A DNA stretch of 64,000 nucleotides from the NCBI GenBank assembly GCA_964016885.1, contig OZ024749.1, positions 27,094,001-27,158,000 on the forward strand, given 5' to 3'. Position numbers and translations under genes: made by a program. The DNA is from Eledone cirrhosa. Lineage: Eukaryota. This document shows positions 6,149-62,808 of the stretch, piece by piece (positions within the stretch are counted from its first letter, which is position 1; every line of letters starts with the position of its first letter). A model generated the notes under the pieces. It saw only the letters and a list, made by a program, of their open reading frames with translations, did not search any database and was not told the origin of the DNA.

Positions 6149-6153
6149 ATATA

Positions 6154-19400: not shown

Positions 19401-22400
19401 TCACCACCAACAACAACAGCAACATCACTACCACTGCACAATAAACACCACCACCAACAACAACAACAGCAACATCACTACCACTGCACAACAAACACCA
19501 CCACCACCAACAACAGCACCATCACTACCACTGCACAATAAACACCACCATCAACGACAACAACAACATCACTACCACTGCACAACAAACACCACCACCA
19601 CCAACAACAGCAACATCACTACCACTGCACAATAAACACCACCACCAACAACAACAACAGCAACATCACTACCACTGCACAACAAACACCACCACCACCA
19701 ACAACAGCACCATCACTACCACTGCACAATAAACACCACCATCAACGACAACAACAACATCACTACCACTGCACAACAAACACCACCACCAACAACAACA
19801 GCAACATCACTACCACTGCACAATAAACACCACCATCAACGACAACAACAACATCACTACCACTGCACAACAAACACCACCACCAACAACCACAACAGCA
19901 ACATCACTACCACTGTACAATAAACACCACCATCAACGACAACAACAACATCACTACCACTGCTCAATAAACACCACCACCACCAACAACAACATCACTA
20001 CCACTGCACAACAAACACCACCACCAACAACAACAACAGCAACATCACTACCACTGCACAACAAACACCACCACCACCAACAACAACAACATCACTACCA
20101 CTGCACAACAAACACCACCACCAACAACAACAACAACATCACTACCACTGCACAACAAACACCACCACCACCAACAACAACAACATCACTACCACTGCTC
20201 AATAAACACCACCACCACCAACAACATCACTACCACTGCACAACAAACACCACCACCAACAACAACAACAGCAACATCACTACCACTGCACAACAAACAC
20301 CACCACCAACAACAACAGCAACATCACTACCACTGCACAACAAACACCACCACCACCAACAACAACAACATCACTACCACTGCACAACAAACACCACCAC
20401 CACCAACAACAGCAACATCACTACCACTGCACAACAAACACCACCACCACCAACAACAGCAACATCACTACCACTGCACAACCAACACCACCACCAACAA
20501 CATCACTACCACTGCACAATAAACACCACCACCACCAACAACAGCAACATCACTACCACGGCACAATAAACACCACCACCAACGACAACAACAACATCAC
20601 TACCACTGCACAACAAACACCACCACCAACAACCACAGCAACATCACTACCACGGCACAATAAACACCACCACCAACAACATCACTACCACTGCACAACA
20701 AACACCACCACCAACGACAACAACAACATCACTACCACGGCACAATAAACACCACCACCAACAACCACAGCAACATCACTACCACTGCACAACAAACACC
20801 ACCACCAACAACAGCAACATCACTACCACTGCACAACAAACACCACCACCACCAACAACCACAGCAACATTACTACCACTGCACAACAAACACCACCACC
20901 ACCAACAACAACAACATCACTACCACTGCACAACAAACACCACCACCACCACCAACAACAGCAACATCACTACCACTGCACAATAAACACCACCACCACC
21001 AACAACAGCAACATCACTACCACTGCACAACAAACACCACCACCACCAACAACAACAATATCACTACCACTGCACAATAAACACCACCACCACCAACAAC
21101 CACAGCAACATCACTACCACTGCACAATAAACACAACCACCAACAACCACAGCAACATCACTACTACTGCACAATAAACACCACCACCACCAACAACAGC
21201 AACATCACTACCACTGCACAACAAACACCACCAACAACAACAACATCACTACCACTGCACAATAAACACCACCACCACCAACAACCACAGCAACATCACT
21301 ACCACTGCACAATAAACACCACCACCACCAACAGCAACATCACTACTACTGCACAATAAACACCACCACCACCAACAGCAACATCACTACTACTGCACAA
21401 TAAACACCACCACCACCAACAGCAACATCACTACTACTGCACAATAAACACCACCACCAACATCACTACCACTGCACAACAAACACCACCACCACCAACA
21501 ACAACAACATCACTACCACTGCACAATAAACACCACCACCACCAACAACCACAGCAACATCACTACCACTGCACAATAAACACCACCACCACCAACAGCA
21601 ACATCACTACTACTGCACAATAAACACCACCACCAACAACCACAGCAACATCACTACCACTGCACAATAAACACAACCACCAACAACCACAGCAACATCA
21701 CTACCACTGCACAATAAACACCACCACCAACAACAACAGCAACATCATTACCACTGCACAACAAACACCACCACCACCAACAACCACAGCAACATCACTA
21801 CCACTGCACAACAAACACCACCACCACCAACAACAGCAACATCACTACCACTGCACAATAAACACCACCACCAACAACCACAGCAACATCACTACCACTG
21901 CACAACAAACACCACCACCACCAACAACAACATCACTACCACTCCACAATAAACACCACCACCAACAACAACAGCAACATCACTACCACTGCACAATAAA
22001 CACCACCACCAACAACAACAGCAACATCACTACCACTGCACAACAAACACCACCACCAACAACAACAGCAACATCACTACCACTGCACAACAAACACCAC
22101 CACCAACAACAACAGCAACATCAGTACCACTGCACAACAAACACCACCACGACCAACAACAACAACATCACTACCACTGCACAATAAACACCACCACCAA
22201 CAACAACAGCAACATCACTACCACTGCACAATAAACACCACCACCAACAACAACATCACTACCACTGCACAACAAACACCACGACCAACAACAACATCAC
22301 TACCACTGCACAACAAACACCACCACCAACAACAACATCACTACCACTGCACAACAAACACCACCACCAACAACAGCAACATCACTACCACTGCACAACA

Positions 22401-25400
22401 AACACCACCACCAACAACAATATCACTACCACTGCACAATAAACACCACCACCAACAACAACATCACTACCACTGCACAATAAACACCACCACCAACAAC
22501 AACAACAACATCACTACCACTGCACAACAAACACCACCACCAACAACAACAGCAACATCACTACCACTGCACAACAAACACCACCACCAACAACAACATC
22601 ACTACCACTGCACAACAAACACCACCACCAACAACAACAACAACATCACTACCACTGCACAACAGACACCACCACCAACAACCACAGCAACATCACTACC
22701 ACTGCACAACAAACACCACCACCAACAACAACAACATCACTACCACTGCACAACAAACACCACCACCAACAACAACATCACTACCACTGCACAATAAACA
22801 CCACCAACAACAACAACAACAGCAACATCACTACCACTGCACAATAAACACCACCACCAACAACAACAGCAACATCACTACCACTGCACAACAAAAACCA
22901 CCACCAACAACAACAACATCACTACCACTGCACAACAAACACCACCACCAACAACAACATCACTACCACTGCACAATAAACACCACCAACAACAACAACA
23001 GCAACATCACTACCACTGCACAACAAACACCACCACCAACAACAACATCACTACCACTGCACAACAAACACCACCACCAACAACAACAACATCACTACCA
23101 CTGCACAACAAACACCACCAACAACAACAACATCACTACCACTGCACAATAAACACCACCAACAACAACAACAGCAACATCACTACCACTGCACAATAAA
23201 CACCACCACCAACAACAACAGCAACATCACTACCACTGCACAATAAACACCACCACCACCAACAACAACAACATCACTACCACTGCACAATAAACACCAC
23301 CACCAACAACAACAGCAACATCACTACCACTGCACAATAAACACCACCACCACCAACAAGAACAACATCACTACCACTGCACAATAAACACCACCACCAA
23401 CAACAACAGCAACATCACTACCACTGCACAATAAACACCACCACCACCAACAACAACAACATCACTACCACTGCACAACAAACACCACCACCAACAACAA
23501 CAACATCACTACCACTGCACAACAAACACCACCACCAACAACAACAACATCACTACCACTGCACAACAAACACCACCACCAACAACAACAACATCACTAC
23601 CACTGCACAATAAACACCAACAACAACAACAACAGCAACTTCACTACCACTGCACAATAAACACCACCACCAACAACAACAGCAACATCACTACCACTGC
23701 ACAATAAACACCACCACCACCAACAACAACAACATCACTACCACTGCACAATAAACACCACCAACAACAACATCACTACCACTGCACAACAAACACCACC
23801 ACCAACAACAACAACATCACTACCACTGCACAACAAACACCACCACCAACAACAACAACATCACTACCACTGCACAATAAACACCACCAACAACAACAAC
23901 AGCAACATCACTACCACTGCACAACAAACACCACCACCAACAACAACAAAATCACTACCACTGCACAACAAACACCACCACCAACAACAACAACATCACT
24001 ACCACTGCACAACAAACACCACCTCCAACAACAACAGCAACATCACTACCACTGCACAATAAACACCACCACCAACAACAACAGCAACATCACTACCACT
24101 GCACAATAAACACCACCACCACCAACAACAACAACATCACTACCACTGCACAATAAACACCACCAACAACAGCAGCAACATCACTACCACTGCACAATAA
24201 ACACCACCAACAACAACAACAGCAACATCACTACCACTGCACAACAAACACCACCACCAACAACAACAAAATCACTACCACTGCACAACAAACACCACCA
24301 CCAACAACAACAACATCACTACCACTGCACAATAAACACCACCACCAACAACAACAGCAACATCACTACCACTGCACAACAAACACCACCACCAACGACA
24401 ACAGCAACATCACTACCACTGCACAATAAACACCACCACCACCAACAACAACAACATCACTACCACTGCACAACAAACACCACCACCAACGACAACAGCA
24501 ACATCACTACCACTGCACAACAAACACCACCACCAACAACAACAACAACAACATCACTACCACTGCACAACAAACACCACCACCACCAACAACAGCACCA
24601 TCACTACCACTGCACAATAAACACCACCACCAACAACCACAGCAACATCACTACCACTGCACAATAAACACCACCACCAACAACAACAGCAACATCACTA
24701 CCACTGCACAATAAACACCACCATCAACGACAACATCACTACCACTGCACAACAAACACCACCAACAACAACAACAACATCACTACCACTGCACAATAAA
24801 CACCACCACCAACAACAACAGCAACATCACTACCACTGCACAACAGACACCACCACCAACAACAACAACAACATCACTACCACTGCACAACAAACACCAC
24901 CACCAACAACAACAACAGCAACATCACTACCACTGCACAATAAACACCACCACCAACAACAACAGCAACATCACTACCACTGCACAATAAACACCACCAC
25001 CAACAACAACAACAACAACATCACTACCACTGCACAATAAACACCACCACCAACAACCACAGCAACATCACTACCACTGCACAACAAACACCACCACCAA
25101 CAACAACAACAACATCACTACCACTGCACAACAAACACCACCACCAACAACAACAGCAACATCATTACCACTGCACAATAAACACCACCACCAACAACAA
25201 CAACATCACTACCACTGCACAATAAACACCACCACCAACAACCACAGCAACATCACTACCACTGCACAACAAACACCACCACCACCAACAACAGCAACAT
25301 CACTACCACTGCACAACAAACACCACCACCAACAACCACAGCAACATCACTACCACTGCACAACAAACACCACCACCACCAACAACAACAGCAACATCAC

Positions 25401-28400
25401 TACCACTGCACAACAAACACCACCACCAACAACAACAGCAACATCACTACCACTGCACAATAAACACCACCACCAACAACAACAGCAACATCACTACCAC
25501 TGCACAACAAACACCACCACCACCAACAACAACAGCAACATCACTACCACTGCACAACAAACACCACCACCAACAACAACAACAGCAACATCACTACCAC
25601 TGCACAACAAACACCACCACCACCAACAACAACAGCAACATCACTACCACTGCACAATAAACACCACCACCAACAACAACAGCAACATCACTACCACTGC
25701 ACAATAAACACCACCACCAACAACAACAGCAACATCACTACCACTGCACAACAAACACCACCACCACCAACAACAACAGCAACATCACTACCACTGCACA
25801 ATAAACACCACCACCAACAACAACAGCAACATCACTACCACTGCACAATAAACACCACCACCAACAACAACAGCAACATCACTACCACTGCACAATAAAC
25901 ACCACCACCAACAACAACAGCAACATCACTACCACTGCACAATAAACACCACCACCAACAACAACAGCAACATCACTACCACTGCACAACAAACACCACC
26001 ACCACCAACAACAACAGCAACATCACTACCACTGCACAATAAACACCACCACCAACAACAACAGCAACATCACTACCACTGCACAATAAACACCACCACC
26101 AACAACAACAGCAACATCACTACCACTGCACAATAAACACCACCACCAACAACAACAGCAACATCACTACCACTGCACAATAAACACCACCACCAACAAC
26201 AACAGCAACATCACTACCACTGCACAACAAACACCACCACCACCAACAACAACAGCAACATCACTACCACTGCACAACAAACACCACCACCACCAACAAC
26301 AACAGCAACATCACTACCACTGCACAATAAACACCACCACCAACAACAACAGCAACATCACTACCACTGCACAATAAACACCACCACCAACAACAACAGC
26401 AACATCACTACCACTGCACAACAAACACCACCACCACCAACAACAACAGCAACATCACTACCACTGCACAACAAACACCACCACCAACAACAACAACAGC
26501 AACATCACTACCACTGCACAACAAACACCACCACCACCAACAACAACAGCAACATCACTACCACTGCACAATAAACACCACCACCAACAACAACAGCAAC
26601 ATCACTACCACTGCACAATAAACACCACCACCAACAACAACAGCAACATCACTACCACTGCACAACAAACACCACCACCACCAACAACAACAGCAACATC
26701 ACTACCACTGCACAATAAACACCACCACCAACAACAACAGCAACATCACTACCACTGCACAACAAACACCACCACCACCAACAACAACAGCAACATCACT
26801 ACCACTGCACAACAAACACCACCACCACCAACAACAACAGCAACATCACTACCACTGCACAATAAACACCACCACCAACAACAACAGCAACATCACTACC
26901 ACTGCACAATAAACACCACCACCAACAACAACAGCAACATCACTACCACTGCACAATAAACACCACCACCAACAACAACAGCAACATCACTACCACTGCA
27001 CAACAAACACCACCACCAACAACAACAGCAACATCACTACCACTGCACAATAAACACCACCACCACCAACAACAACAGCAACATCACTACCACTGCACAA
27101 TAAACACCACCACCAACAACAGCAACAACAACGACATCATCACTACCACTACTACTAACAACAACAACACCAATGCTGCCACCTCCACTAACAACAATAG
27201 CAATAGTAACAACAACTATAGCAACAACTACAACACCATCACCACCACAAACAGTAACAACAACAACAATACTTACTTTGGTTCATTGATATTAAAAGCT
27301 CTTCCTTCATTATTGAAAAGTCTTCTTGGTTTCTTGAGATTTTCATTTTCAGAGCTATAACAACATCAACATATGTATCATATATATTACACACACACAT
27401 ATATATATCACATCACATATACAGACACACACATATCACACACACACATAAGAGCTATAACAACATATGTATCATATATATTACACACACACACACATAT
27501 ATATATCACATCACATATACAGACACACACACATCACACACACACATAAGAGCTACAACAACATCAACATATGTATCATATATATTACACACACACACAC
27601 ATATATATATCACATCACATATACAGACACACACATATCACACACACACATAAGAGCTATAACAACAACATCAACATATGTATCATATATATTACACACA
27701 CACACACATATATATATCACATCACATATACAGACACACACATATCACACACACACATAAGAGCTATAACAACATATGTATCATATATATTACACACACA
27801 CACACATATATATATCACATCACATATACAGACACACACATATCACACACACACATAAGAGCTATAACAACAACATCAACATATGTATCATATATATTAC
27901 ACACACACACATATATATATATCACATCACATATACAGACACACACATATCACACACACACATAAGAGCTATAACAACATCAACATTTGTATCATATATA
28001 TTACACACACACACACATATATATATATATCACATCACATATACAGACACACACATAAGAGCTATAACATCATCATCAACATATGTATCATATATATTAC
28101 ACACACACACACATATATATATATATCACATCACATAAACAGACACACACATATCACACACACACATAAGAGCTATAACAACATCATCAACATATGTATC
28201 ATATATATTACACACACACACACACATATATATCACATCACATATACAGACACACACATATCACACACACACATAAGAGCTATAACAACATATGTATCAT
28301 ATATATTACACACACACACACACATATATATATCACATCACATATACAGACACACACATATCACACACACACATAAGAGCTATAACAACAACATCAACAT

Positions 28401-30118
28401 ATGTATCATATATATTACACACACACACACACACATATATATATCACATCACATATACAGACACACACATATCACACACACACATAAGAGCTATAACAAC
28501 ATATGTATCATATATATTACACACACACACACATATATATATCACATCACATATACAGACACACACATATCACACACACACATAAGAGCTATAACAACAA
28601 CATCAACATATGTATCATATATATTACACACACACACACATATATATATCACATCACATATACAGACACACACATATCACACACACACATAAGAGCTATA
28701 ACAACAACATCAACATATGTATCATATATATTACACACACACATATATATATCACATCACATATACAGACACACACATATCACACACACACATAAGAGCT
28801 ATAACAACATATGTATCATATATATTACACACACACACACATATATATATCACATCACATATACAGACACACACATATCACACACACACATAAGAGCTAT
28901 AACAACAACATCAACATATGTATCATATATATTACACACACACACACATATATATATCACATCACATATACAGACACACACATATCACACACACACATAA
29001 GAGCTATAACAACAACATCAACATATGTATCATATATATTACACACACACACACATATATATATATCACATCACATATACAGACACACACACATCACACA
29101 CACACATAAGAGCTATAACATCATCATCATATGTATCATATATATTACACACACACACACACATATATATATCACATCACATATACAGACACACACATAT
29201 CACACACACACATAAGAGCTATAACAACAACATCAACATATGTATCATATATATTACACACACACACACATATATATATATCACATCACATATACAGACA
29301 CACACATATCACAAACACATAAGAGCTATAACATCATCAACATATGTATCATATATATTACACACACATATATATCACATCACATATACAGACACACACA
29401 TATCACACACACACATAAGAGCTATAACAACATCAACATTTGTATCATATATATTACACACACACACACATATATATATATATCACATCACATATACAGA
29501 CACACACATAAGATCTATAACATCATCATCAACATATGTATCATATATATTACACACACACACACACATATATATATATCACATCACATAAACAGACACA
29601 CACATATCACACACACACATAAGAGCTATAACAACATCATCAACATATGTATCATATATATTACACACACACACATATATATCACATCACATATACAGAC
29701 ACACACATATCACACACACACATAAGAGCTATAACAACATCATCAACAACAACACACACTCATCTGTGTCTCACATACACACATACAACATATACACATC
29801 TCTATCACACACACACATACACATTTATGTCACACACACACAGACCAGTATCACAAACACAAACCCACACACACACAGACCAGTATCACACATACACACT
29901 CACTTGTATGAAACACTATGTAGGTATATACAGTATATATCTATCTAAGGCGGGTAAAATTCCCGAGATCCATGGACGAGTTCTCTCCAGCAGTCTCTGT
30001 CCCTCATTATCGCTGCCATGTCCTGCGTCTCCAACAGACCAGTGTCTGTCCTTAGGGCATCAACATACGTTAACCTTGGTCTTCCTCTTCTAGTGTGTCC
30101 ATGTAGGGCCTCCCAACG

Positions 30119-34138: not shown

Positions 34139-34379
34139 ATATACATATACATATATATATATACATATACATATATATATATATATATATATATTTAGAA
34201 CTAAAAGGAAAGCACAAACAAGGGACAGGTTCCCTCTTCAGTTGTCTGCTGGGGGTCTCGGACATTTTAACGCATTCCCCAGCAGACAACTGAAGAGGGT
34301 ACCTGTCCCTTGTTTGTGCTTTCCTTTCATTTCTAAATACACTTTATCAAGTAACCACACAGCCCCTTGTTCCTTCTAA

Positions 34380-37313: not shown

Positions 37314-39983
37314 TTTATGGAGGCACATGGCTTAGTGGTTAGAGCATTGGCCTTGCAATCAAAAGGTTGTGAGTTCAATTCTCAGACCGGATGATGTGTT
37401 GTTTCCTTGAGCAAGACACTTTATTTCACATTGCTCCAGTATACTCAGTATACCTGCTTGCAAGGGTGGGACGGGAACTGATTCTGGCTTGATTTCTACA
37501 GCTGGATGCCCTTCCTAACACCAACCTCATTTACAGTGAGTGCTGGGTGCTTTTTTGCCGTGGCACCTCCACGACCACTTTGCAGTGGAATGATATGGGG
37601 CCCCAGTCCCTATCATCTCATTTCTACAGCTGAGCAAACTGGAGCAATGTGAAATAAAGTGTCTTGCTCAAGGAAACTACACATCACCCGGTCTGAGAAT
37701 TGAACTCACAACCTTTTGATTGCAAGGCCAATGCTCTAACCACTAAGCCATGTGCCTCCATATACACATATATATATATATATATATGTAGATAAATCTA
37801 CCAAGAGTTTACGGTAGTGTCCAATCCGTATGAAGAACTCAATGTAATCCGGATATCATGGAAAGAAGAGATGCAATGAAAAATCACTTTCGGTGAAAGA
37901 TAAACGGAATACAGAGTCAAGATAAAATATTAAAAAAATAATGAATAAAACAATGAAACAGTTCCTTATATTAAACAAAAAAAGTTCATTATTTAACGAT
38001 CGTTTCTAGGATATATATGTGTTAGAATTGGCATGCATATTCAACAGATCTATGTACAAAATTATACAAAATTATACAAACTATCAAAATTAAATATACA
38101 TACCAACACATATATATGCCGTCTTCAGAAATAATGAAATATATTTATTGATAATAACAACAATTCAAAATTACAGGTCTGTTTGGGAACAGAGTTCAAA
38201 TTGACCAATGAAAACACAAAAAGTTTATACAGTTAGGTGTATGTATATATGTAAGTAACTTCGTTCACAGATATGCATAAAAATATATATATGTTCACAT
38301 GCATGCGCATGCCGAAAAGATGTATGTAAATACAAAAATTCAGGGCTAATGTCTCTGTATGTTTATAATCTACAGATAAAATACGTATACGCATATAAAC
38401 ACATAAATATAAAAATAAATATATACACATTCATATACTCACACATATACATACATTCACACACACACGCGCGTATACGCATAAACATACACACAATCAC
38501 GAACATACATACACACACACACCCCCACACACATATATGTGTATATACTATTATCATAAGTATATGGACATTAATGCGCGCACATAAACACTGCCACACA
38601 TATTTAGATCCAGATACAGAAAGTAGGTAGGGGGGGAAGAGGTCAGTATTTACTGGTGTCAGCAAACTGTCCGCGCATTGCCTGGAGACTTAACTGAGAA
38701 TAGACTTCCTGATGACGCAATGAATTCTCGACAGTTGGATTACGTAACTGTCTTTATCCCATTGCAGAAACTAATTAGTTGGAGTGAAAATTTAAGTAAG
38801 AAAAAAATTTTTTTTAAATTTTTTTAAAAAAATATTTTCTTATTTTACGTCCTTTATATTATTGTTCTGCATTCTCCTGCATTGAACCACCTAGGTACTA
38901 TGACATAACCTGTGTATTTGCTGGCATGGGCGTGCATCTGTGCGCTTATGTTAGTTGATATATTAAATTATCTATATTTATCTCCAAATCACTGATTTGT
39001 CGAGCAAACTTGTCAAAACCACTTCTAAAAAAATTTTTTTTTTTTTGGGGTGTTAGTAGGCGTCAGTCATCTTACCATCCCATTCCTTCTAACTAGCCTC
39101 TGTGTCACGTGATTGATTCTTTAGAATCGGCCATTTGACTTGAAGCAGTGAGAATTTCGGTACATAGAATCCAGTCCTCGCAAGCTGTTCGATCTACCGA
39201 ATTATTATTATTTTTATATGAGCCGCCAGTGTCCGCGCATTGCCTGGAGACTTAACTGAGAATAGACTTCCTGATGACGCAATGAATTCTCGACAGTTGG
39301 ATTACGTAACTGTCTTTATCCCATTGCAGAAACTAATTAGTTGGAGTGAAAATTTAAGTAAGAAAAAAATTTTTTTTAAATTTTTTTTAAAAAAATATTT
39401 TCTTATTTTACGTCCTTTATATTATTGTTCTGCATTCTCCTGCATTGAACCACCTAGGTACTATGACATAACCTGTGTATTTGCTGGCATGGGCGTGCAT
39501 CTGTGCGCTTATGTTAGTTGATATATTAAATTATCTATATTTATCTCCAAATCACTGATTTGTCGAGCAAACTTGTCAAAACCACTTCTAAAAAAATTTT
39601 TTTTTTTTTTTTTTTTGGGGTGTTAGTAGGCGTCAGTCATCTTACCATCCCATTCCTTCTAACTAGCCTCTGTGTCACGTGATTGATTCTTTAGAATCGG
39701 CCATTTGACTTGAAGCAGTGAGAATTTCGGTACATAGAATCCAGTCCTCGCAAGCTGTTCGATCTACCGAATTATTATTATTTTTATATGAGCCGCCAGT
39801 GTCCGCGCATTGCCTGGAGACTTAACTGAGAATAGACTTCCTGATGACGCAATGAATTCTCGACAGTTGGATTACGTAACTGTCTTTATCCCATTGCAGA
39901 AACTAATTAGTTGGAGTGAAAATTTAAGTAAGAAAAAAATTTTTTTAAAATTTTTTTAAAAAAATATTTTCTTATTTTACGTC

Positions 39984-40027
<44 letters not shown>

Positions 40028-40095
40028 ACACATACACATACACACATACAAAGATATATATATATATATATATATACACACGCACATATAATATA

Positions 40096-40158
<63 letters not shown>

Positions 40159-40454
40159 TATATATACACACATACATACATATACATACTCATACATAGA
40201 CATACATATGTATACACACACACATACACACATGCATATACGCATATATACACATACATACACATCCATGTATGCGTATACACATACAAACACAACCACA
40301 CGCTCACACAACTCAGACATACATAAATAAAGGGATATACATACACATATATACATATATAAATAGAGATACATATACACATATAAATATATACACACAT
40401 ACACACACACACACATATACATACATACACACATACATATATATAAACACACAT

Positions 40455-40519
<65 letters not shown>

Positions 40520-40619
40520 TATATAAAAATAAAGAAATAAAAGAAATAAATAAATAAATTAATTAATACACACAGTCAGACAAATATGTACACACATACA
40601 TGTACACATACATATACAT

Positions 40620-40676
<57 letters not shown>

Positions 40677-43313
40677 CATATACATACATATATATATACA
40701 CATACACACATCAACTACAAATATATATATATATATATATATATATGGAAAGTTATATTTAAATTGTTGGGTTACAACTAGTAAATATTTATAACTGATA
40801 TAAAAGCACTCAACAAGTATTTGGAGTATATTTACGATACTAAATAAATGGAAACTACATCTACAAAACCATATCTATCTCATCATACATACCTCAGGGA
40901 CATCACACCAACAATATGCTGTGTGATGTCCCTGAGGTATGTATGATGAGATAGATATGGTTTTGTAGATGTAGTTTCCATTTATTTAGTATCGTAAATA
41001 TACTCCAAATACTTGTTGAGTGCTTTTATATCAGTTATAAATATTTACTAGTTGTAACCCAACAATTTAAATATAATTAAGTTAAAAATGTACATCCACA
41101 TATGTATACTGAAATACTAGTATGCATATGAATACACACACGTATACATATGTAGATGTACCGAGTTTTTCACTGGTCACTTTACTGTGAGTGTCCAGCT
41201 ATTCTGTATGTAAACACACAGACAAACCGGTTTTTAGAGTCATACTGGTTTTTGAGGAAACACCTTTCCTCTATTCTCCAGAAAGCCAGACAAGGAATAT
41301 TGAACTAGTTTCGATGTTGTTACATCTCATCAGCAATATTTACCTATCTTCCGGCCTCTCTAGAGAATCGTAAAAGCACATATCGTTATATGCTTTTTCT
41401 ATGAAAATTAGTAGTGGGCAGACTAATTTGCATAGAGCGTGAGTACGTACCGGTTCAACGGAGACGATAAAAACAAATAACGAAACAAAATTAAATTTCG
41501 TTTCGTTTGTAACTCACTTTTGTATGACTGACGCTTAAACAATTAAGTTAAAAATGTACATCCACATATGTATACTGAAATACTAGTATGCATATGAATA
41601 CACACACGTATACATATGTAGATGTACCGAGTTTTTCACTGGTCACTTTACTGTGAGTGTCCAGCTATTCTGTATGTAAACACACAGACAAACCGGTTTT
41701 TAGAGTCATACTGGTTTTTGAGGAAACACCTTTCCTCTATTCTCCAGAAAGCCAGACAAGGAATATTGAACTAGTTTCGATGTTGTTACATCTCATCAGC
41801 AATATTTACCTATCTTCCGGCCTCTCTAGAGAATCGTAAAAGCACATATCGTTATATGCTTTTTCTATGAAAATTAGTAGTGGGCAGACTAATTTGCATA
41901 GAGCGTGAGTACGTACCGGTTCAACGGAGACGATAAAAACAAATAACGAAACAAAATTAAATTTCGTTTCGTTTGTAACTCACTTTTGTATGACTGACGC
42001 TTAAACAATTAAGTTAAAAATGTACATCCACATATGTATACTGAAATACTAGTATGCATATGAATACACACACGTATACATATCTAGATTTACCGAGTTT
42101 TTCACAGAATAGCTGGACACTCACAGTAAAGTGACCAGTGAAAAACTCGGTACATCTACATATGTATACGTGTGTGTATTCATATGCATACTAGTATTTC
42201 AGTATACATATGTGGATGTACATTTTTAACTTAATTGTTTAAGCGTCAGTCATACAAAAGTGAGTTACAAACGAAACGAAATTTAATTTCGTTTCGTTAT
42301 TTGTTTTTATCGTCTCCGTTGAACCGGTACGTACTCACGCTCTATGCAAATTAGTCTGCCCACTACTAATTTTCATAGAAAAAGCATATAACGATATGTG
42401 CTTTTACAATTCTCTAGAGAGGCCGGAAGATAGGTAAATATTGCTGATGAGATGTAACAACATCGAAACTAGTTCAATATTCCTTGTCTGGCTTTCTGGA
42501 GAATAGAGGAAAGGTGTTTCCTCAAAAACCAGTATGACTCTAAAAACCGGTTTGTCTGTGTGTTTACATACAGAATAGCTGGACACTCACAGTAAAGTGA
42601 CCAGTGAAAAACTCGGTACATCTACATATGTATACGTGTGTGTATTCATATGCATACTAGTATTTCAGTATACATATGTGGATGTACATTTTTAACTTAA
42701 TTGTTTAAGCGTCAGTCATACAAAAGTGAGTTACAAACGAAACGAAATTTAATTTCATTTCGTTATTTGTTTTTATCGTCTCCGTTGAACCGGTACGTAC
42801 TCACGCTCTATGCAAATTAGTCTGCCCACTACTAATTTTCATAGAAAAAGCATATAACGATATGTGCTTTTACGATTCTCTAGAGAGGCCGGAAGATAGG
42901 TAAATATTGCTGATGAGATGTAACAACATCGAAACTAGTTCAATATTCCTTGTCTGGCTTTCTGGAGAATAGAGGAAAGGTGTTTCCTCAAAAACCAGTA
43001 TGACTCTAAAAACCGGTTTGTCTGTGTGTTTACATACAGAATAGCTGGACACTCACAGTAAAGTGACCAGTGAAAAACTCGGTACATCTACATATGTATA
43101 TGTGTGTGTATTCATATGCATACTAGTATTTCAGTATACATATGTGGATGTACATTTTTAACTTAATTGTTTAAGCGTCAGTCATACAAAAGTGAGTTAC
43201 AAACGAAACGAAATTTAATTTCGTTTCGTTATTTGTTTTTAATTTAAATATAACTTTCCATATATATATTTGTAGTTGATGTGTGTATGTGTATATATAT
43301 ATGTATGTATATG

Positions 43314-43378
<65 letters not shown>

Positions 43379-43491
43379 ATGTATATGTATGTGTACATGT
43401 ATGTGTGTACATATTTGTCTGACTGTGTGTATTAATTAATTTATTTATTTATTTCTTTTATTTCTTTATTTTTATATATATATGTATATAT

Positions 43492-43542
<51 letters not shown>

Positions 43543-43830
43543 ATGTGTGTGTATATATATGTATGTGTGTATGTATGTGTATGTATATGTGTGTGTGTGT
43601 GTGTGTGTATATATTTATATGTGTATATGTATCTCTATTTATATATGTATATCCCTTTATTTATGTATGTCTGAGTTGTGTGAGCGTGTGGTTGTGTTTG
43701 TATGTGTATACGCATACATGGATGTGTATGTATGTGTATATATGAGTATATGTATGTGTGTATGTGTGTGTGTATATATATGTATGTCTATGTATGAGTA
43801 TGTATATGTATGTATGTGTGTATATATATA

Positions 43831-43893
<63 letters not shown>

Positions 43894-43962
43894 TATATTA
43901 TATGTGCGTGTGTATATATATATATATCTTTGTATGTGTGTATGTGTATGTGTGTGTATGTA

Positions 43963-44018
<56 letters not shown>

Positions 44019-44078
44019 GGTATGTATGTGTATGTGTGTATATACATGAGTGTGTTTATATATGTGTATAGATATATG

Positions 44079-44139
<61 letters not shown>

Positions 44140-44346
44140 ATGTGTGTTGTGAATGTATATATGTATGTGTCTCTATATGTATGCGTGTGTGTATGTGTAT
44201 GTGTATTTATATGGTGTGTGTATGTATATGTATGTGTATGTATGTGTTTATGTATATGTGTATGTATATGTATGTATATATATGTATATATATATATATG
44301 TATATGTATGTATATCGATGTATATTTTATATTTTACTTGTTTATA

Positions 44347-44419
<73 letters not shown>

Positions 44420-45226
44420 TTTCTTAATATTTTTCTTTTTTCTTTTTCTTTTTATTTCTAAATTTATAGATACATTTATAAATAGGCAGTTTGCTGACAC
44501 CAGTAAATACTGACCTCTTCCCCCCCCCCTACCTACTTTCTGTATCTGGATCTAAATATGTGTGGCAGTGTTTATGTGCGCGCATTAATGTCCATATGCT
44601 TATGATAATAGTATATACACATATGTGTGTGGGGGTGTGTGTGTGTATGTATGTTCGTGATTGTGTGTATGTTTATGCGTATACGCGCGTGTGTGTGTGA
44701 ATGTATGTATATGTGTGAGTATATGAATGTGTATATATTTATTTTTATATTTATGTGTTTATATGCGTATACGTATTTTATCTGTAGATTATAAACATAC
44801 AGAGACATTAGCCCTGAATTTTTGTATTTACATACATCTTTTCGGCATGCGCATGCATGTGAACATATATATATTTTTATGCATATCTGTGAACGAAGTT
44901 ACTTACATATATACATACACCTAACTGTATAAACTTTTTGTGTTTTCATTGGTCAATTTGAACTCTGTTCCCAAACAGACCTGTAATTTTGAATTGTTGT
45001 TATTATCAATAAATATATTTCATTATTTCTGAAGACGGCATATATATGTGTTGGTATGTATATTTAATTTTGATAGTTTGTATAATTTTGTATAATTTTG
45101 TACATAGATCTGTTGAATATGCATGCCAATTCTAACACATATATATCCTAGAAACGATCGTTAAATAATGAACTTTTTTTGTTTAATATAAGGAACTGTT
45201 TCATTGTTTTATTCATTATTTTTTTA

Positions 45227-45282
<56 letters not shown>

Positions 45283-46505: not shown

Positions 46506-47597
46506 CACATATATATATACATATATAAACTTATATATATGTATATACACATATATATATATATACATATATACAGGACCAGGAGCGACCGATATCCCCG
46601 TGTCAAAATCGATACGTGACCTGGGCATAGACATGAGCGATGATGCATCTTTTTCTTCACACATCATGAAGGTGGCGACAACATGTAGACGACTCGCTGG
46701 CTGGATCTTGAGGACTTTCCGGACAAGAGATCGAGACACCATGTTGACACTGTGGAGGACTTTTGTCCTAAGCCGCCTGGACTACTGCTCCCAGTTGTGG
46801 TCACCCCATAGTGTCAAACTAACCACGGAGCTTGAGGCAATCCAGCGAAGCTACACCAAGAGGATTGCCAAGATGAGGGAGACAAGCTACTGGGAGAGGC
46901 TAAAGGAACTGAACCTCTACTCCTTGGAGCGAAGACGGGAGAGATACGCAGTGATCTACATGTGGAAAATCCTGGAGAGACTAGCACCAAACTTTGGCAT
47001 TGGGAGCTGGACCAACCGTCGAACAGGACATCACTGTGTGGTGTCAAAGGTCCCGTCTTCCACATCTAGAATAAGGAGCAGGTATTGCAATAGCCTGGGA
47101 TTTAAGGGCCCTCAACTCTTCAACAGGCTGCCGAGGCATCTGAGAGACTTGCATGACGTGGAGGTGGATGTCTTTAAGAAACATCTCGACACCTTGTTAT
47201 CCAGGATCCCGGATGAGCCCACAGCAAGACACAAGGGAAACCTAAGGGCAGCAGCAACAAACTCCCTCCTACACCAGTGGCCAACCTATACAGGCTGGAG
47301 ATAAAATGTGTAGCAACAAGGGCGGTGCCCCAGCATGGCCTCAGTCGGATGGCTGAAACAGGTAAAAGAGTAAAAGCGATATGTATATATATGTATATAT
47401 ATATATATATATATCCAGGGAGTGTAACTTGGAGTTACTGTAGGTTCACCCGGGTGAGCACTCGAGTAACCAATCGTCCTTGTTATACATATACATATAT
47501 ATATATGGATATACATATCTATATATGTATATACACATATATATATACATATATATATATATACACATATATATATATATATATATACATATATATA

Positions 47598-47651: not shown

Positions 47652-49494
47652 TAAAATAACAGATTAAAGTTTAAGCAAAGAATCGCTGCTTTCACCCTTA
47701 ACGGGATCTTCTGAAACTAACAAAGTCAATCTGTAAACGCAGAACTGGATATTTGCTCTACGGTTCTTATATATTTGATATATATTTATCCTTATCGAGC
47801 CCTCTTTGGATTTTAGTCTTCAAATTTATTATTATTACTATATATATATATATATATAAATATGTATATACATATATACATATGTATATACACAGATATA
47901 TATATGTATCATCATCATTTTACGTCCGCTGGGACAGGAACTGATTCTGGCTTGATTTATACAGCTGGATGCCCTTCCTAACACCAACCACATTTACAGT
48001 GAATGCTGGGTGCTTTTTTTCCGTGGCACCTCCACGACCACTTTTCAGTGGAATTATAGGGACCCCAATCCTATCATCTCATTTCTACAGCTGAGCAAAC
48101 TGGAGCAATGTGAAATAAAGTGTCTTGCTCAAGGAAGCAACACATCACCTGGTCTGAGAACCTTTCGATTGCAAGGCCAATGCTCTAACCACTAAGCCAT
48201 GTGCCTCTACTATATATATATATATATATATATAGCACGGCCTAGAATCAAAAGGCCTTAAAATTAACCTGGCTAAGACTAAAGTTCTAGTTTGTAAGAA
48301 AGAAAATAAGGCTGCGGTCCCCTCCGGGAAGTGGCCATGCTCAGTGTGTAGGAAAGGCGTAGGTAGAAACTCCATTTTGTGTCCCAAATGCAAAGTATGG
48401 GTGCATAAAAGATGTAGTGGGATCACAGGTAAGCTAACTAAGAACATAGATTTTACATGTGGCCGGTGTTCTGGGGCAATAAGTAGCAGCAAGTGCCCAC
48501 AAAATACTAGCTCTTTCAACTGCGCAGAGGGTTCTATAGAAATAGTGGACAGCTTCCGTTACCTGGGTGACAAAATCAGCAGTGGGGGAGGGTGCTCTGA
48601 AAGTCCAGTAGCTAGAGTCAGAACTGGGTGGAAAAAGTTCAGAGAGCTTATACCTCTACTAGCCGCTAAAGGGTTCTCCCTAAAAATGAAAGGCAGGCTG
48701 TATGATGCCTGCATACGAACAGCAATGTTGCATGGCAGTGAGACCTGGGCATTGTGTGCAGAGGATATACGCAGACTAGAGAGAAACGAAGCTTGCATGC
48801 TCCGCTGGATGTGTAATAGTAATATACGTGAACGGCAAAGCATAAACGAACTAAGAAAAAATTAGAAATAAGAGGGATCAGATGTTGTTTACTCGAGAGA
48901 AGGCTACGTTGGTATGGTCACGTGATGCGCATGAAGAACAATAGCTGTATAACAAAGTGCAGGGCAATAAAGATAGACGGTAGCCACGGAATAGGCAGAC
49001 CCAGAAAAACCTGGGACGAGCTGATAAATTCCGACCTCACACATTTACACCTCTCCAAGACAATGTCACTGGACCGAGACCTTTGGCGGTACTCAGTAAT
49101 AGAGAAGACCCACCTTACCTAAATACAAAGTAAAACCTACTACAGTCAGTAGGCATCTCTAACAAAATACACCCCCGTCCCACCACCCCACCCCATCCAC
49201 ACCGCCCCTTTCAATGTAAAGTTATGTTGGTGCCACAACATCCGGGCCGAAACAAATGAGATCGTGTAGGTGTCACGCTGTAATGTGGCCGTGTAGGCAA
49301 CACGGTAAAAACCTCCCAGCCCCACACTGTAAATGTGGTTGGTGTTAGGAAGGGCATCCAGCTGTAGAAAACCCGCCAGACAGTCCTATGCGAGCAAGAT
49401 AATCACTCTTGCCTCAAGTGGGAAACCCCCGTCCAAACCCATGCAAGCGTGGAACACGGACGTTAAACGTTGATGATGATGATGATGATGATAT

Positions 49495-49731: not shown

Positions 49732-50651
49732 TATATATATATGCAAAAGTTTTATTTAAAATTGTTGGGTTACAACAAGTAAATATTTTATAACTGATAT
49801 AAAGCACTCGACAAGTTTTGGAGTAGATATACGATATTAAACAAATGGAAACTATATTTATAAAACCATATTTATTTCATTATACATATTTCGGGGATAC
49901 CATATTAAAAATATTCATGAATATTGATATTTACATTATATTACCCAATTCATATGAGTTGATAATTCAAATTGACAGGACATAACGTAAAGATGTAAAT
50001 CTATCATAACTCTCTCTAGATATAGCTCTTTCTTCTCCTCCCTCTTTATATATGATGAAGTCTATGTATCCGTTGTTTTAACTTTGCCTCTCCTATTTCT
50101 CTCTTGATTTTCACCTCCCCCTATATAATTATTATTATTTGGTCTACCTCTTTTTCCCCCCACCTCTATCTTTCTCTCTCTCTGTTTTCTCTTCATCTTT
50201 TATTTCTCTCCGTCTCCTCCCCAACTGTCCTTAACACTATAACTAAATAATTACAGTACTCCCTCCCTCCTAAATCTCTCAATTTGTATGATGAATTATT
50301 ATTATTCATCTGTTGCCTCAGCTGCCTCTCTTTTTTCACCTCCTCACTATTTCTCTCTCCCCTATCTCTCTCTATTTCTCTCTGTTTTTCTTTACATACA
50401 TTTCTTCTTTTTCTCCGTCTTTCTTTTTTTTAACTGTGTTTAACACTAAATATTTATAAACATCTCACTACCAAACCAGCTTCTTACATAACGGTTGCTC
50501 AATTATTTATGGTACGTCAAAATTATTTATAAAACTGTTTATATATTGTATTTTATCTGAAGAAGGCATGCCATATTTTTAATATGGTATCCCCGAAATA
50601 TGTATAATGAAATAAATATGGTTTTATAAATATAGTTTCCATTTGTTTAAT

Positions 50652-50719
<68 letters not shown>

Positions 50720-51219: not shown

Positions 51220-52053
51220 GAGAGTATTGAAGTTTGCTTGAAGCATTGTGGAATAATAAGTAAATATCTTTAAGTCGTTTGGAAGCCTCGACAATGCAAA
51301 TGGGTAAATCTCCGGGTAACAAGATCCGATGATGGAGAGAGATGTAAGTGGGTGTACGTTGAGATGCGTGGTGTGTATAAGATGTGTAAGATGTGTAGAA
51401 GAATGAAGGGAAGAGTATAAAGGATAAAATTAAAATAAAAATAACAACACAAGAGAGAGTTACCTTGGGAGAGATTTAATAGTCCCTATATATTTCGGAT
51501 TCACATCCATCAACTGGGGTTTTTTTTCCGGGGTGGGGGAAAAGGTTGTCTGTCGGACAGGTGCAAAACGCGTCCTCCGCTATTTGTTGTTTTGAATATC
51601 TGAGGTATTCGGCAGAGCGCTCGTGCGCGTGAAATGGGGTCGGTCGGGCAGAGGTCAGCAGCCGCATGAGGGAGTAGGGTGGCGCTAGCTGTCAGTCCAT
51701 TCTCTGCCTGTTTGTTAAATGTTACTGTGTGTGTGTGTGCGTGTGTTGTTGCCTCGCTTGAGTGTGTGCGTGTGTTGTTGCCTCGCTTGAGTGTGTGTGT
51801 GTGTGCGTGTGTTGTTGCCTTGTTCCTCTGTATTGGCAGTGTAGTGTAGTATGTTCGTATGGTGGAATGCTACTGTATGTGTGTGCGTGTGTGTAGTTGT
51901 CTTGTTTGTGTGTGTGTGTGTGTGCGTGTGTTGTGTGTTGCTGCATCGTTTGTTAACTTAAACCAGCCATCTCATTTCGCTTCTCTCTGATCGGTTGTTT
52001 ATTTGCGGTTGCAGGCGTTTGATAAAAAGCGCTTCCTTGATACGTAACGTGCC
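51220..52053 (-). mobile_element. Penelope-like element 3' fragment: GIY-YIG C-terminus plus 3' region with a decayed hammerhead
   Basis: LRIKEALFIKRLQPQINNRSE...* (stop at 51958) fits the GIY-YIG end motif; minus strand 51484-51519 reads CCC-CAGTTGA-T-GGAT(GTGA)ATCC-GAAATATATA-GGG; left boundary approximate. Confidence 0.65.
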
Positions 52054-52065
52054 GATACGTAACGT

Positions 52066-53356
52066 GCCGGTCCCCTCCGGGAAATGGCCGTGCTCAGTGT
52101 GTAGGAAAGGCGTAGGTAGAAACTTCATTTTATGTCCCAAATGCAAAGTATGGGTGCATAAAAGATGTAGTGGGATCACAGGTAAGCTAACTAAGAACAC
52201 AGATTTTACATGTGGCCGGTACTCTGGTGAAATAAGTAGCAGCAGGTGCCCACAAAATACTAACTCTTTCAATTGCGCAGAGGGTTCTATAGAAATAGTG
52301 GACAGCTTCCGTTACCTGGGTGACAAAATCAGCAGTGGGGGAGGGTGCTCTGAAAGTACAGTAGCTAGAGTCAGAACTGGGTGGAAAAAGTTCAGAGAGC
52401 TTATACCACTATTAGCCGCTAAAGGGTTCTCCCTAAAAATGAAAGGCAGGTTGTATGATGCCTGCATACGAACAGCAATGTTGCATGGCAGTGAGACCTG
52501 GGCATTGTGTGCAGAGGATATACGCAGACTAGAGAGGAACGAAGCTTGCATGCTCCGCTGGATGTGTAATAGTAATATACATGAACGGCAAAGCATAAAC
52601 GAACTAAGGAAAAAATTAGAAATAAGAGGGATCAAATGTTGTTTACTCGAGAGAAGGCTACGTTGGTATGGTCACGTGATGCGCATGAAAGACGACAGCT
52701 GTATAACAAAGTGCAGGGCAATAAAGATAGATGGTAGCCACGGAGTAGGCAGACCCAGGAAAACCTGGGACAAGCTGATAAATTCCGACCTCACACACTT
52801 ACACCTCTCCAAGACAATGTCACTGGACCGAGACCTTTGGCGGTACTCAGTAACAGAGAAGACCCGCCTTACCTAAATACAAAGTAAAACCTACTAGTCA
52901 GTAGGCATCTCTAACAAAATACACCCCGTCCCACCCCATCCACACCGCCCCCTTCAATGCAAAGTTATGTTGGTGCCACAACATCCAGGCCAAAACAAAC
53001 GAGATCGTGTAGGTGTCACGACAAAAAAACACACAGTCCACGCTGTAACGTGACCGTGTAGGCAACACGGTAAAAACCTCCCAGTCCCACACTGTAAATG
53101 TGGTTGGTGTTAGGAAGGGCATCCAGCTGTAGAAAACACGCCAGACAGTCCACGCTGTAATGTGGCCGTGTAGGCAACACGGTAAAAACCTCCCAGACCC
53201 ACACTGTAAATGTGGTTGGTGTTAGGAAGGGCATCCAGCTGTAGAAAACCCGCCAGACAGTCCTATGCGAGCAAGACAACCACTCTTGCCTCAAGTGGGA
53301 AAACCCCCGTCCAAACCCATGCAAGCGTGGAACAGGGACGTTAAACGATGATGATG

Positions 53357-54146: not shown

Positions 54147-54429
54147 TTAAAAGTTTATGTAACACCAAGGATTTAAAGCATTTTAAAACTGACAGCTTTT
54201 TCTACCCGTACAAAGCCATTTACAGTCTGTTATAATATAACTTCCTATTTGTAATTGTGACCCCCACTGCATTGAGCTATAAATCAACCTGTAAATCAGT
54301 ATAACTACTACCCTTAATATTATAACTATAATGTTAATATGGCTATTATACATATATATACACACACACATATATATATATATATATTAGAAAAGAGAAG
54401 TAAGGTTCTATACAAAACAGTGGATATAG

Positions 54430-54928
54430 AGAAAAGGTGAAGTTGGAAATAGCACGGAAAATATATTTTAGAGTCTGTTTTTCTTTTTTTTTCCTTTCTT
54501 TGATTTGTCAAAGTGACATTATTGAAAAAAACAAGAGTGACAATTCTTTTAAAAAAGAGTTTTATAAAGTATTACCGGTTTCGATGTATTATTAAGATTC
54601 ATCTTATCAAATGTTGAGTATTACAATTAATGACTACACACCCCTCTCTCTAAACACAAGAACTCATACTCCAGTCCCCTTCTGAGCAAGGAAGATGGGG
54701 AAAAATCTTCCTCCATCACTTAATTTTTAATTTTTAATTTGATAAGATGAATTTTAATAATACATCAAAACCGGTAATACTTTATATACATTATAAAACT
54801 CTTTTTAAAAGGAATTGTCCCTTTCATTTTTCCAATAATGTCACTTTGACGAATCAAAGAAAGGAAAAAAAACAGACCCCTAAAATATATTTTCCGTGCC
54901 ATTTCCAACTTTACCTTCTCTCTCTCTA
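54430..54928. repeat. Diverged ~180-bp inverted repeat containing a decayed hammerhead core
   Basis: 54430-54612 vs 54738-54928; TTGATAA-GATG..CATC-GAAAC-CG-GTA on minus. Confidence 0.7.
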
Positions 54929-56800: not shown

Positions 56801-57115
56801 CTCTCATTCTCTCACTCTTATTCTCTTTCTTTCCATCTCTCTCTTTCTCCCGATTTCTCTCTTTCTGTTATTATCTATCACTTTATCGCATTCACTCTCT
56901 CTCACATACACACATACAACACACTGACTGTCTTACTCTCTCTTTTTTCTAGTTCTCACTCCCCCCCCCTCTCTCTCTGGTATTCTAGTCCTCTTCAGTC
57001 CTGTTCCTCTTCTCAGCATCTTCCAGTTCTGTAACCAGATCCTGCTTCTAAAAATTCTGGTTAGTTTGGCAGGGATCTGACTCAACTGATGGCTGCATAT
57101 ATATATATATATATA

Positions 57116-57792
57116 TATTATAAAATTAGTCCCTCATCAGTGATTTGCCAACCATCATTGCATTAAAAATCATATACCTCAGGTTGGTGCGAGCAATAAC
57201 TAAAATAAGCTATTGGGACAAGTGAATCGCGTAAAGCGAGTGAGACAAGTAAACAACATAAAAAGAAAAGCAAACCGAAGGTAGGAAAAAAAGCAAGCAA
57301 CATGATAGTTATCCGGTCAGCATAAGCTGGGTGAATTTCATGAGCGGTCAGAAAACAGACCGTCCGACATGAATGAGATGTGAGAAAGAAAGAATCCCAC
57401 TACTAACGAACGGGAGGAAGTGAGAAGGGGAGAAACAGAGAGTGAGTGAGTGGAAGTGCGAGGAAGAGGTCAGTCGAGAGAAAGTGTAACTGACAGAGGG
57501 GGCAAAAGAAGGTGAGAGAAACAGAGAGAACGGGGGAGCAAAAAGAGAGAAACAGACAATCGCAGTCGAGGTAAATATGTATAAAAAACAGGGGAAGAAA
57601 GAGGAAAACTGCGTGGTTGCACATGGGTTACATATTATAAAATTAGTCCCTCATCAGTGATTTGCCAACCATCATTGCATTAAAAATCATATACCTCAGG
57701 TTGGTGCGAGCAATAACTAAAATAAGCTATTGGGACAAGTGAATCGCGTAAAGCGAGTGAGACAAGTAAACAACATAGAAGGAAAAGCAAAT
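57116..57792. repeat. ~155-bp direct repeats about 520 bp apart (pLTR-like)
   Basis: tattataaaattagtccctcatcagtg...gacaagtaaacaacata at ~57116 and ~57633. Confidence 0.8.
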
Positions 57793-61600: not shown

Positions 61601-61866
61601 CTCATTTCTAGTACCAAACCCATAGCCTCCATGGATTTCGTCGTAGCCGTCACAATGTTGTCCAACGTGACCATTTAGGTCGCCTGCAATAATTATATAG
61701 TCACTGTCAGATATTTGGGAGGTAGTTAGCAACAGTGTCTCATAGAATCTGTCTTTTATAGTGCCCGGCAGTTCGGATTGGGGTGCGTACACAGATATTA
61801 CTGTCACCGTAGTTCTATTGAGGACAAGTCGTATTTTAACTATTCTGTCGTTCACTCTATTTACGT
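58606..61866 (-). mobile_element. RTE-clade LINE (APE + RT) with an internal inverted segment 59435-60255
   Basis: APE motifs (VYAPQ, GDLNGHVG, SQVDYIL, SQHRL) and RT motifs (NYRGIKL, QFGF, FVDLEKAFDRV, GVHQGSVLSP, LYADD); 3'UTR and (GAT)n tail; disabling mutations. Confidence 0.93.
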
Positions 61867-62092
61867 CTATATATATATATATATAGGTAAATATGCATGC
61901 ATGCACACATATATGTTCACATACAAAAATGCATACACACACCTGCACACACATATACAAATACATACACACACACAAACAAAACCTTGTGTATATGTGT
62001 GTAATGGTTACGCAGTTGTGTATGTGGTGAAAGGAATACCTGAGGCTTGTATACATTCTTGTAGCTGTATTTGTGTGTGAGTGTATATATTT

Positions 62093-62124
<32 letters not shown>

Positions 62125-62125
<1 letters not shown>

Positions 62126-62808
62126 GTAATATAAGTGAACGGCAAAGCATAAATGAACTAAGTTAGAAATTAGGAATAAGAGGGATCAGATGCTGTTTAC
62201 TCGAGAGAAGACTATGTTGGTATGGTCACGTGATGCGCATGAAAGACGACAGCTGTATAAAAAAGTGCAGGGCGATCAAAATAGACAGTTACGGAGTAGG
62301 CAGACCCAGAAAATCCTGGGACGACTTGATAAATTCCGACCTCACACACTTACATCTCTCCAAGACAATGTCACTGGACCGAGATCTTTGGCGCTACACA
62401 GTAATACAGAAAACCCGCCTTGCCTAAGTGCAAAGCGAAACCTATAGTCAGTAGGCACCTCTTACCAAAATACACCCATGTCCCACTACCCACACCCCAT
62501 CCACACCACCCCCTTTCGATGTTAAGTTATGTTGGTACCACAACATCCAGTCCAAAATAAATGAGGTTGTGTAGGTGTCACAACAAAAAAACACACAGTC
62601 CACGCTGTAATGTGGCCTTGTAGGTAACACGGTGAAAACCTCCCAGTCCACACTGTAAACGTGGTCGGTGTTAGGAAGGGCATCCAGCCGTAGAAAACCC
62701 GCCAGACAGTCCTATATGAGCAAGACAACCAATATTGCCTCAAATGGGAAAATTACCGTCCAAACCCATGGTAGCGTGGAAGATGGACGTTAAACAATGA
62801 TGATGATG
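62125..62808 (+). mobile_element. RTE LINE 3' fragment (more diverged)
   Basis: WYGHVMRM...GRPRKSWDDL...DRDLWR plus 3'UTR and tail. Confidence 0.88.

Follow-up and report, generated by a model that had tools for sequence, protein, structure and literature searches.

Array B of Eledone cirrhosa: a probable young, non-coding PLE-type retrozyme with a variant hammerhead ribozyme and informative junctions at a (TA)n tract

Metazoan non-LTR retrozymes are head-to-tail arrays of non-coding repeats that carry one type I hammerhead ribozyme per unit, have a GC content below 50% and are predicted to form stably folded circles (PMC7229834; bioRxiv 10.64898/2026.07.22.740005). The units measure 150-450 bp (PMC7229834) or 51-972 bp (the preprint), few units per locus are typical (no more than 7 in 75% of families; the preprint), target duplication is optional (PMC7229834), and PLE enzymes are proposed as the mobilizer by both; the preprint also describes metazoan retrozymes as akin to PLE pLTRs. 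The pLTRs of PLEs contain hammerheads of their own and flank an RT-endonuclease ORF (PMC4209133). A circular-template model has been published both for PLEs (PMC4209133) and for animal retrozymes (PMC7229834), and the step that returns circular ribozyme RNA to the genome is proposed rather than demonstrated in these two papers and in the preprint. Complex PLE insertions at microsatellites and non-autonomous Chlamys elements, e.g. MRC1, display partial tandems, inverted 5'-truncated neighbors, extension at one end only and (TA)n targets without visible target duplication; non-autonomous Chlamys also occur as multicopy head-to-tail copies, and the same source reports canonical hammerheads as undetected in most Chlamys (PMC8557442). 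Finally, in Terminon/Athena chains, which are telomeric, endonuclease-deficient and ORF-rich, the units carry hammerheads and are attached at their 3' ends through pairing with a simple repeat (PMC6431247).

A stretch of 64,000 nucleotides of Eledone cirrhosa contig OZ024749.1 (the window; all positions are counted from its first nucleotide) contains a locus that shares features with each of these systems. Array B (38668..39991, plus strand, 1324 bp) comprises 2.34 tandem non-coding hammerhead units of 562, 570 and 192 bp, with unit anchors at 38670, 39232 and 39802 and hence periods of 562 and 570 bp. The approximately 2.3 near-identical units of 562/570 bp reported in the initial annotation were thus recovered, as was the start of the array; its end moves from 39988 to 39991, the former position falling inside a 5-nt overlap with the (TA)n run at 39987-40018. 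Units 1 and 2 align with 562 matches, no substitutions and 8 gap columns, all inside T runs, and become identical once homopolymers are compressed; the unit junctions are identical and without added nucleotides. In the partial third unit, a single apparent mismatch lies at the boundary of a T run and an A run, and otherwise only run lengths vary.

The unit has a GC content of 35.6%, and coding capacity was rejected, the longest stop-free stretch in six frames of the doubled unit being 55 codons. An ORF check found no RT and GIY-YIG ORF of the kind that lies between pLTRs, so that array B, with no ORF, is no autonomous PLE and differs in this respect from the pLTR-bearing elements of PMC4209133. 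No bacterial-type promoter was found in the region, a result of little relevance in an animal. Searches with the unit gave no further copies in the 64-kb window (best nhmmer E-value 9.9; blastn matches of only 14-21 nt) and no match among the plasmid and phage sequences searched. With three hammerheads and two full monomers, the array has the two or more successive units bearing full type I hammerheads that define a non-LTR retrozyme, together with the non-coding sequence, the GC content below 50%, the unit of a few hundred bp and, by prediction, the stable circle; the number of units is as low as is typical of the class, and the unit is longer than the range of PMC7229834, yet lies within that of the preprint. 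Array B is real and was described correctly; it is a new representative of a known class, with a variant ribozyme and informative junctions, and is very probably a young copy of a non-autonomous, non-coding PLE-type non-LTR retrozyme.

The ribozyme is a type I hammerhead of the PLE type. In its first copy (38704..38785, plus strand, core from 38709), a 5-bp stem I (38704-38708/38781-38785) is followed by the CUGAUGA box, an unpaired C (38716), helix II (38717-38765) with the G10.1-C11.1 pair kept, an extra A (38766), the GAAA box (38767) and a perfect 12-nt palindrome forming helix III (38769-38780), with predicted cleavage after 38780, at GUU. The second (39266..39347, core 39271) and third (39836..39917, core 39841) copies, also on the plus strand, are identical to the first, and their predicted cleavage sites follow 39342 and 39912. 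Two plus-strand monomers from cleavage site to cleavage site, candidate circular RNAs by prediction only, would therefore span 38781..39342 (562 nt) and 39343..39912 (570 nt). The array ends elsewhere, the first site lying 113 nt from the 5' end and the last 79 nt before the 3' end. Helix II forms a 51-nt domain of 6 bp, a 7x7 internal loop and an 8-bp hairpin with the GACAGUU and AACUGUC arms, as had been proposed. The hammerhead previously assigned to each unit is likewise present, as three cores; the palindromic helix III and the extra nucleotides flanking helix II had been overlooked.

All elements of the PLE hammerhead consensus printed in the supplement of PMC4209133 (CUGANGAH, G10.1-C11.1, GAAAN, a palindrome and NUH) are present. 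Relative to the PLE pLTR hammerheads described in that paper, the B ribozyme departs by the extra A before GAAA, i.e. between C11.1 and G12, and by the much longer helix II with its internal loop; its palindrome is of 12 nt. The extra A, outside the published consensus, may lower activity. The C and A at the helix II base are not read as a 10.1-11.1 pair that has decayed, since an unpaired base before G10.1 is a conserved feature of PLE hammerheads (PMC4209133). Classical retrozymes carry canonical hammerheads in which loop 1 and loop 2 make tertiary contacts (PMC7229834). A distal stem I modeled to give such contacts in B had a predicted probability of 0 and is unsupported; mussel retrozymes likewise lack most of the loop-contact nucleotides (PMC7229834), and the contacts are therefore not strictly defining. 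The descriptor used here allows one extra nucleotide on either side of helix II; a strict descriptor misses the B hammerhead, and so does an Rfam search of the whole window and of a 641-bp stretch. Matches to H/ACA snoRNAs in that search (E-values 0.75 and 9.4) were far below thresholds and were rejected, and a second relaxed core at 38694 and 39256, with a stem II of only 2 bp, was treated as chance. Among 20000 dinucleotide shuffles of the unit, 17 contained any relaxed hammerhead and none an equally good one.

Folding predictions give a mixed picture of activity. The 121-nt hammerhead region is no more stable than its shuffles (z -0.90; 38 of 200), and in the local fold helices I and II have probabilities of 0.74-1.0 and helix III only 0.16-0.18. 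Co-folding of two hammerhead domains gives a double-hammerhead topology with an energy of -49.4 kcal/mol, where a single domain reaches -19.9 kcal/mol, and the 12-nt palindromic helix III is thus predicted to favor dimer folding. When all 1324 nt of the transcript are folded, palindromes of different units pair with one another, with probabilities of 0.84-0.88 for units 2 and 3 under a span limit and of 0.47 and 0.15 without one; the probability of stem I is at most 0.06, and the predicted equilibrium therefore does not contain the full active fold. Activity of the B hammerhead is accordingly plausible, not established. The circular monomer is predicted at -136.1 kcal/mol (z -4.84; none of 40 shuffles as stable), with 63% of its bases paired compared to 59% in the shuffles. 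Stem I is unformed in this fold, and the circle would therefore be protected.

Array B is situated in a 7.4-kb inverted repeat centered at 42104, in which four hammerhead-type modules are chained and no ORF is present. From the center outward, each arm contains array C, module D, a microsatellite-rich block M, then segment X on the right or array B on the left, module A and (TA)n. Array C (41075..43241, centered at 42104) consists of two head-to-head arrays of 466-bp hammerhead units; module D (40747..41076) is a fold-back hairpin with a PLE-like 3' end bearing 13 A-to-G changes; block M occupies 39992..40746 (minus strand) and, in its right copy, 43262-44013. Module A, with a long-helix-II hammerhead, lies at 37788..38669 on the minus strand (core 38128) and at 44487..45232 on the plus strand (core 45029); both copies have their 3' end in (TA)n, and the left one is 133 bp longer. 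Elsewhere in the window, too, copies of A and D terminate in (TA)n: the recurring 3' end meets (TA)n at 37788, 5676 and 5893 for A and at 40747 and 49746 for D, and an earlier end at an internal TA overlap is used by A at 45232 and by D near 50660. The ribozyme sense runs from the center outward in C, in A and in the D ends that meet (TA)n, and B points in the opposite direction. This arrangement resembles the complex PLE insertions of PMC8557442 in its partial tandem copies, in an inverted neighbor truncated at the 5' end, in extension at one end only, in a (TA)n target that shows no target duplication and in non-autonomous copies joined head to tail; array B has its sense 3' end at a microsatellite target and combines a tandem with an inverted neighbor. 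It differs from the insertions described in that paper in that the inverted neighbor belongs to another family (A) and in the chaining of four hammerhead-type modules in an ORF-less palindrome. The Terminon/Athena chains of PMC6431247 share the hammerhead-bearing units and the attachment to simple repeats, whereas the present locus uses (TA)n and is non-coding.

Array C is weakly scored as HH9 by Rfam (36.5 bits against a gathering score of 52), and the circular fold of its unit has a z of -9.0. The two sister arrays belong to the same family and have different ends, and D-to-C jumps can be recognized in each arm. At one site both left units have T and the three right units all have C, and all three differences private to the right array fall at CpG sites. 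The uniformity of each array for its own allele weakly suggests separate (monomeric) templates; it is weak because the informative site is a CpG, at which recurrent mutation or within-arm homogenization could explain the pattern.

Several further motifs were recorded in and around the palindrome. Long-helix-II motifs of the hammerhead type occur at 45029-45162 (plus), 38128-37995 (minus) and 50557-50610 (plus), and in A, B and D the base of helix II carries a mismatch (C.A or A.C), possibly a shared variant. An 11-nt motif is common to the units of B (39060-39070) and C (42243, 42709, 43175, 41524 and 41990). It resembles adjacent CRE/AP-1 half sites and could represent either an internal promoter element or a chance match. 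Between (TA)n runs at 5100-6150, a smaller composite of tandem and inverted parts holds two 40-bp copies of the extreme 3' end of module A (5676 and 5893) and, at 5206, a minimal hammerhead in which C3 is U. Elsewhere, the window contains a 15-kb minisatellite of 47-bp units and, after it, another made of about 23 copies of a 107-bp unit (11877-29900); a tRNA-related SINE-like repeat in inverted arrangement at 37316-37767, with copies at 166-483, 10050-10398 and 47930-48207; LINE RT fragments at 48234-49386, 51962-53151, 59307-60257, 60428-62185 and 46580-47304, three of them 88-95% alike; a 163-bp direct repeat of 98% identity (57112-57274 and 57629-57791); a 185-bp inverted repeat of 84% identity (54428-54923); and a near-perfect hairpin (34209-34322). 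A scan of the last three for hammerheads found none. Among matches to a LINE protein, Octopus vulgaris was the best named animal (66%), and a short record labeled as bacterial ranked first (74%).

The confinement of the array to the left arm, as originally reported, is confirmed by the right arm, which at that place carries 473 bp found on that side only (segment X, 44014..44486, plus strand). This segment consists mostly of microsatellite with a T-rich tract of about 65 bp, in keeping with the roughly 480 bp of unrelated microsatellite described before; it was probably lost from the left arm, as opposed to being filler in the right. It contains 59 TG and 2 CA dinucleotides, and because this TG-rich strand polarity is common to X, M and A, segment X was probably original in the arm. 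Replacement of X by B in the left arm would be the simplest history. At its 5' end, array B meets module A head to head with a 2-nt overlap (38668..38669; B on the plus and A on the minus strand), in non-repetitive sequence. At its 3' end, the last 5 nt overlap the first 5 nt of the (TA)n run (39987..40018), which we infer to be the priming site; only 25 of 1124 random breakpoints (2.2%) show a (TA)n overlap of at least 5 nt. No target-site duplication was found at B, which has instead the 2-nt and 5-nt overlaps and the 473-bp loss, a deletion in place of the duplication that PMC7229834 treats as optional. The placement at a left-arm site had thus been seen correctly, and the (TA)n junction and the orientation opposite to the host arm had been missed.

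The recent origin deduced earlier from near identity holds in absolute terms. A test did not show array B to be younger than the surrounding palindrome: with a rate based on 6 substitutions counted in the arms of C and A, block M being excluded, no substitutions are observed where 2.2 are expected (P = 0.11, not significant). The arms themselves differ little, with 1 substitution in about 745 bp of module A.

A candidate for the enzyme class is represented in the window by a broken PLE RT fragment at 63476-63802 (within 63476-64000), for which 114 relatives were retrieved. The closest named relatives by identity are Octopus and Argonauta proteins (60-72%), and the best scores belong to bivalve proteins. 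In all three long relatives scanned, the RT is followed by a C-terminal GIY-YIG, and a Cx2-5CxxC linker is present in 45 of the 54 relatives of at least 600 aa. This linker marks the Neptune and Nematis clades and is hypothesized to drive microsatellite targeting (PMC8557442). The fragment shows that such PLEs exist in the genome, not that this family moved B; no sequence link between the two was found, and B has no similarity to an autonomous PLE 3' end or pLTR within the window.

Module D bears a signature of a different kind. Relative to the copy at 49746-49916, its segment 40747-40919 carries 22 substitutions, of which 13 are A to G on the ribozyme strand and none T to C (P = 5e-5). The G is taken as derived because each of the 13 sites is A in a third copy (50570-50663) and because the GAAA box is destroyed by two of the changes. 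All 13 lie within the stretch over which copies two and three are arranged as an inverted pair; 13 of the 32 A in it are changed, compared with 0 of 28 beyond it (P = 7e-5, with the boundary set by the extent of the third copy, the pattern noticed before the test and three copies in all). ADARs edit RNA duplexes and are very active in cephalopods. Module D looks like an ADAR-edited duplex RNA reverse-transcribed back into DNA, which would support RNA intermediates at the locus and says nothing direct on B. No published report of such write-back by ADAR was found among the papers listed in a literature search, judged by title or abstract start.

The origin of array B was considered under a circular-template account and four alternatives, treated as mutually exclusive. 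Insertion by PLE-driven reverse transcription at (TA)n, on a circular RNA template and with a deletion, is favored tentatively, at somewhat less than an even chance. A source array would first be transcribed; hammerheads of neighboring units, predicted to pair via the palindromic helix III, would cut at GUU, and a host ligase would close the monomers of about 565 nt into circles, by analogy with other retrozymes. The RT/endonuclease of an autonomous PLE, presumably of the Neptune or Nematis type, would then nick the (TA)n tract, and the DNA end would anneal to an internal UAUAU of B RNA, at the junction observed, and start the cDNA. The enzyme would travel around the template 2.34 times, which matches the observed periodicity if the template was circular, after which the cDNA end would join target DNA about 470 bp away via the 2-nt overlap, with loss of X from the left arm; the junction and the asymmetry of the arms are observed, and the order of events is conjectural. 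Priming at (TA)n is favored because the 5-nt overlap is rare by chance and because A and D copies also end in (TA)n, and a circular template because the units are identical except for homopolymers, their junctions are identical and the array ends are unrelated to the cleavage sites. Also counted in favor of this account are the fit of the hammerhead to the PLE consensus apart from one A, the predicted co-folding of two domains, the stability of the circular monomer, the strand polarity of X, the allele uniformity of the sister C arrays, the editing-like signature of D and the PLE RT fragment; the whole-transcript fold, the extra A, the single cleaved Xenopus dimer among nine (bioRxiv 10.64898/2026.07.22.740005) and the lack of target duplication count against it.

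The sequence of one insertion cannot separate a circular from a linear template. The greater-than-unit length, earlier read as a product of reverse transcription around a circle, fits this reading in that its ends are unrelated to the cleavage site, and a linear multimer or template jumps would fit it too. The same PLE insertion at (TA)n, from an uncleaved multimer of a young parent array or by repeated template jumping, is therefore a serious if rather unlikely alternative, in which the B hammerhead may be weak or mainly a recognition fold. The absence of the complete active fold from the whole-transcript prediction and the extra A in the core speak for it, as do the poor cleavage of PLE hammerheads in vitro (PMC4209133), the in vitro cleavage of only one of nine predicted retrozyme dimers of Xenopus, eight being uncleaved (bioRxiv 10.64898/2026.07.22.740005), and the multicopy head-to-tail insertions of non-autonomous Chlamys (PMC8557442). 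It accounts less readily for the lack of unit-to-unit substitutions and of added nucleotides at unit junctions, for the uniformity of each sister C array for its own allele and for a circular fold far more stable than shuffles, although the linear monomer shares most of that structure. The other source named in the initial annotation, pLTR duplication, is not borne out: successive 5'-truncated copies should presumably give unequal unit lengths, and these are not seen.

The ribozyme-sense 3' end of B lies in (TA)n, as in A and D, a polarity for which DNA repair gives no reason, and only a very recent local duplication could have left no substitutions; an origin at the DNA level, either by copying from another array during break repair (strand invasion or microhomology joining) or by insertion of a single unit and its local duplication through unequal exchange, is improbable on this account. 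It would explain the short overlaps at both junctions, the loss of 473 bp and the lack of target duplication, and large palindromes are generally break-prone. The preprint (bioRxiv 10.64898/2026.07.22.740005) also proposes that a PLE terminus is amplified locally into a tandem. Decidedly improbable, too, is capture during synthesis of the left arm, whereby an RT copying M-X-A RNA jumped to antisense B RNA and back, skipping X: B lies precisely where two collinear portions of the arm meet, its age is inseparable from that of the arm, and D-to-C jumps are seen in both arms, yet minus-strand B RNA and two jumps are required, and a priming site is the simpler explanation of the (TA)n overlap at the sense 3' end of B. 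Lastly, every difference between B units is one of homopolymer length, which is typical of long-read error, and (TA)n abounds in the 7.4-kb inverted repeat that forms the locus. Assemblies are often troubled by PLE insertions (PMC8557442). An assembly artifact in the array, its copy number or its position (a collapsed repeat, a fold-back read or a chimeric join in microsatellite) is nevertheless very improbable: a fold-back read would not yield arms that differ, as these do, in substitutions, alleles and module content, the left junction of B lies in non-repetitive sequence, and the hammerhead is real wherever the array sits.

A joint reading of the locus, doubtful in its entirety, would make it a near-intact record of a PLE RT repairing (TA)n breaks by rolling around circular retrozyme RNAs and switching among at least four hammerhead RNAs. 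Module D would have been hyper-edited by ADAR within a duplex, the A-to-I edits being fixed in germline DNA and the D ribozyme silenced, and the ribozymes of A, B and D would form a lineage-specific class whose long helix II is closed by a C.A or A.C mismatch.

The class to which array B belongs is already known, and the array alone is of moderate interest; the neighboring editing signature may perhaps be of more. No cephalopod example of such an element was found among the openly accessible papers listed in literature searches, judged by title or abstract start. The variant ribozyme of B escapes Rfam, so comparable repeats are probably undercounted. Being very young, with readable junctions and an uninterrupted matching arm, B appears to show that priming took place at (TA)n by way of a short overlap and that a deletion accompanied the insertion. 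If the joint reading were true, junctions collected genome-wide would make the circular-template step testable from sequence alone.
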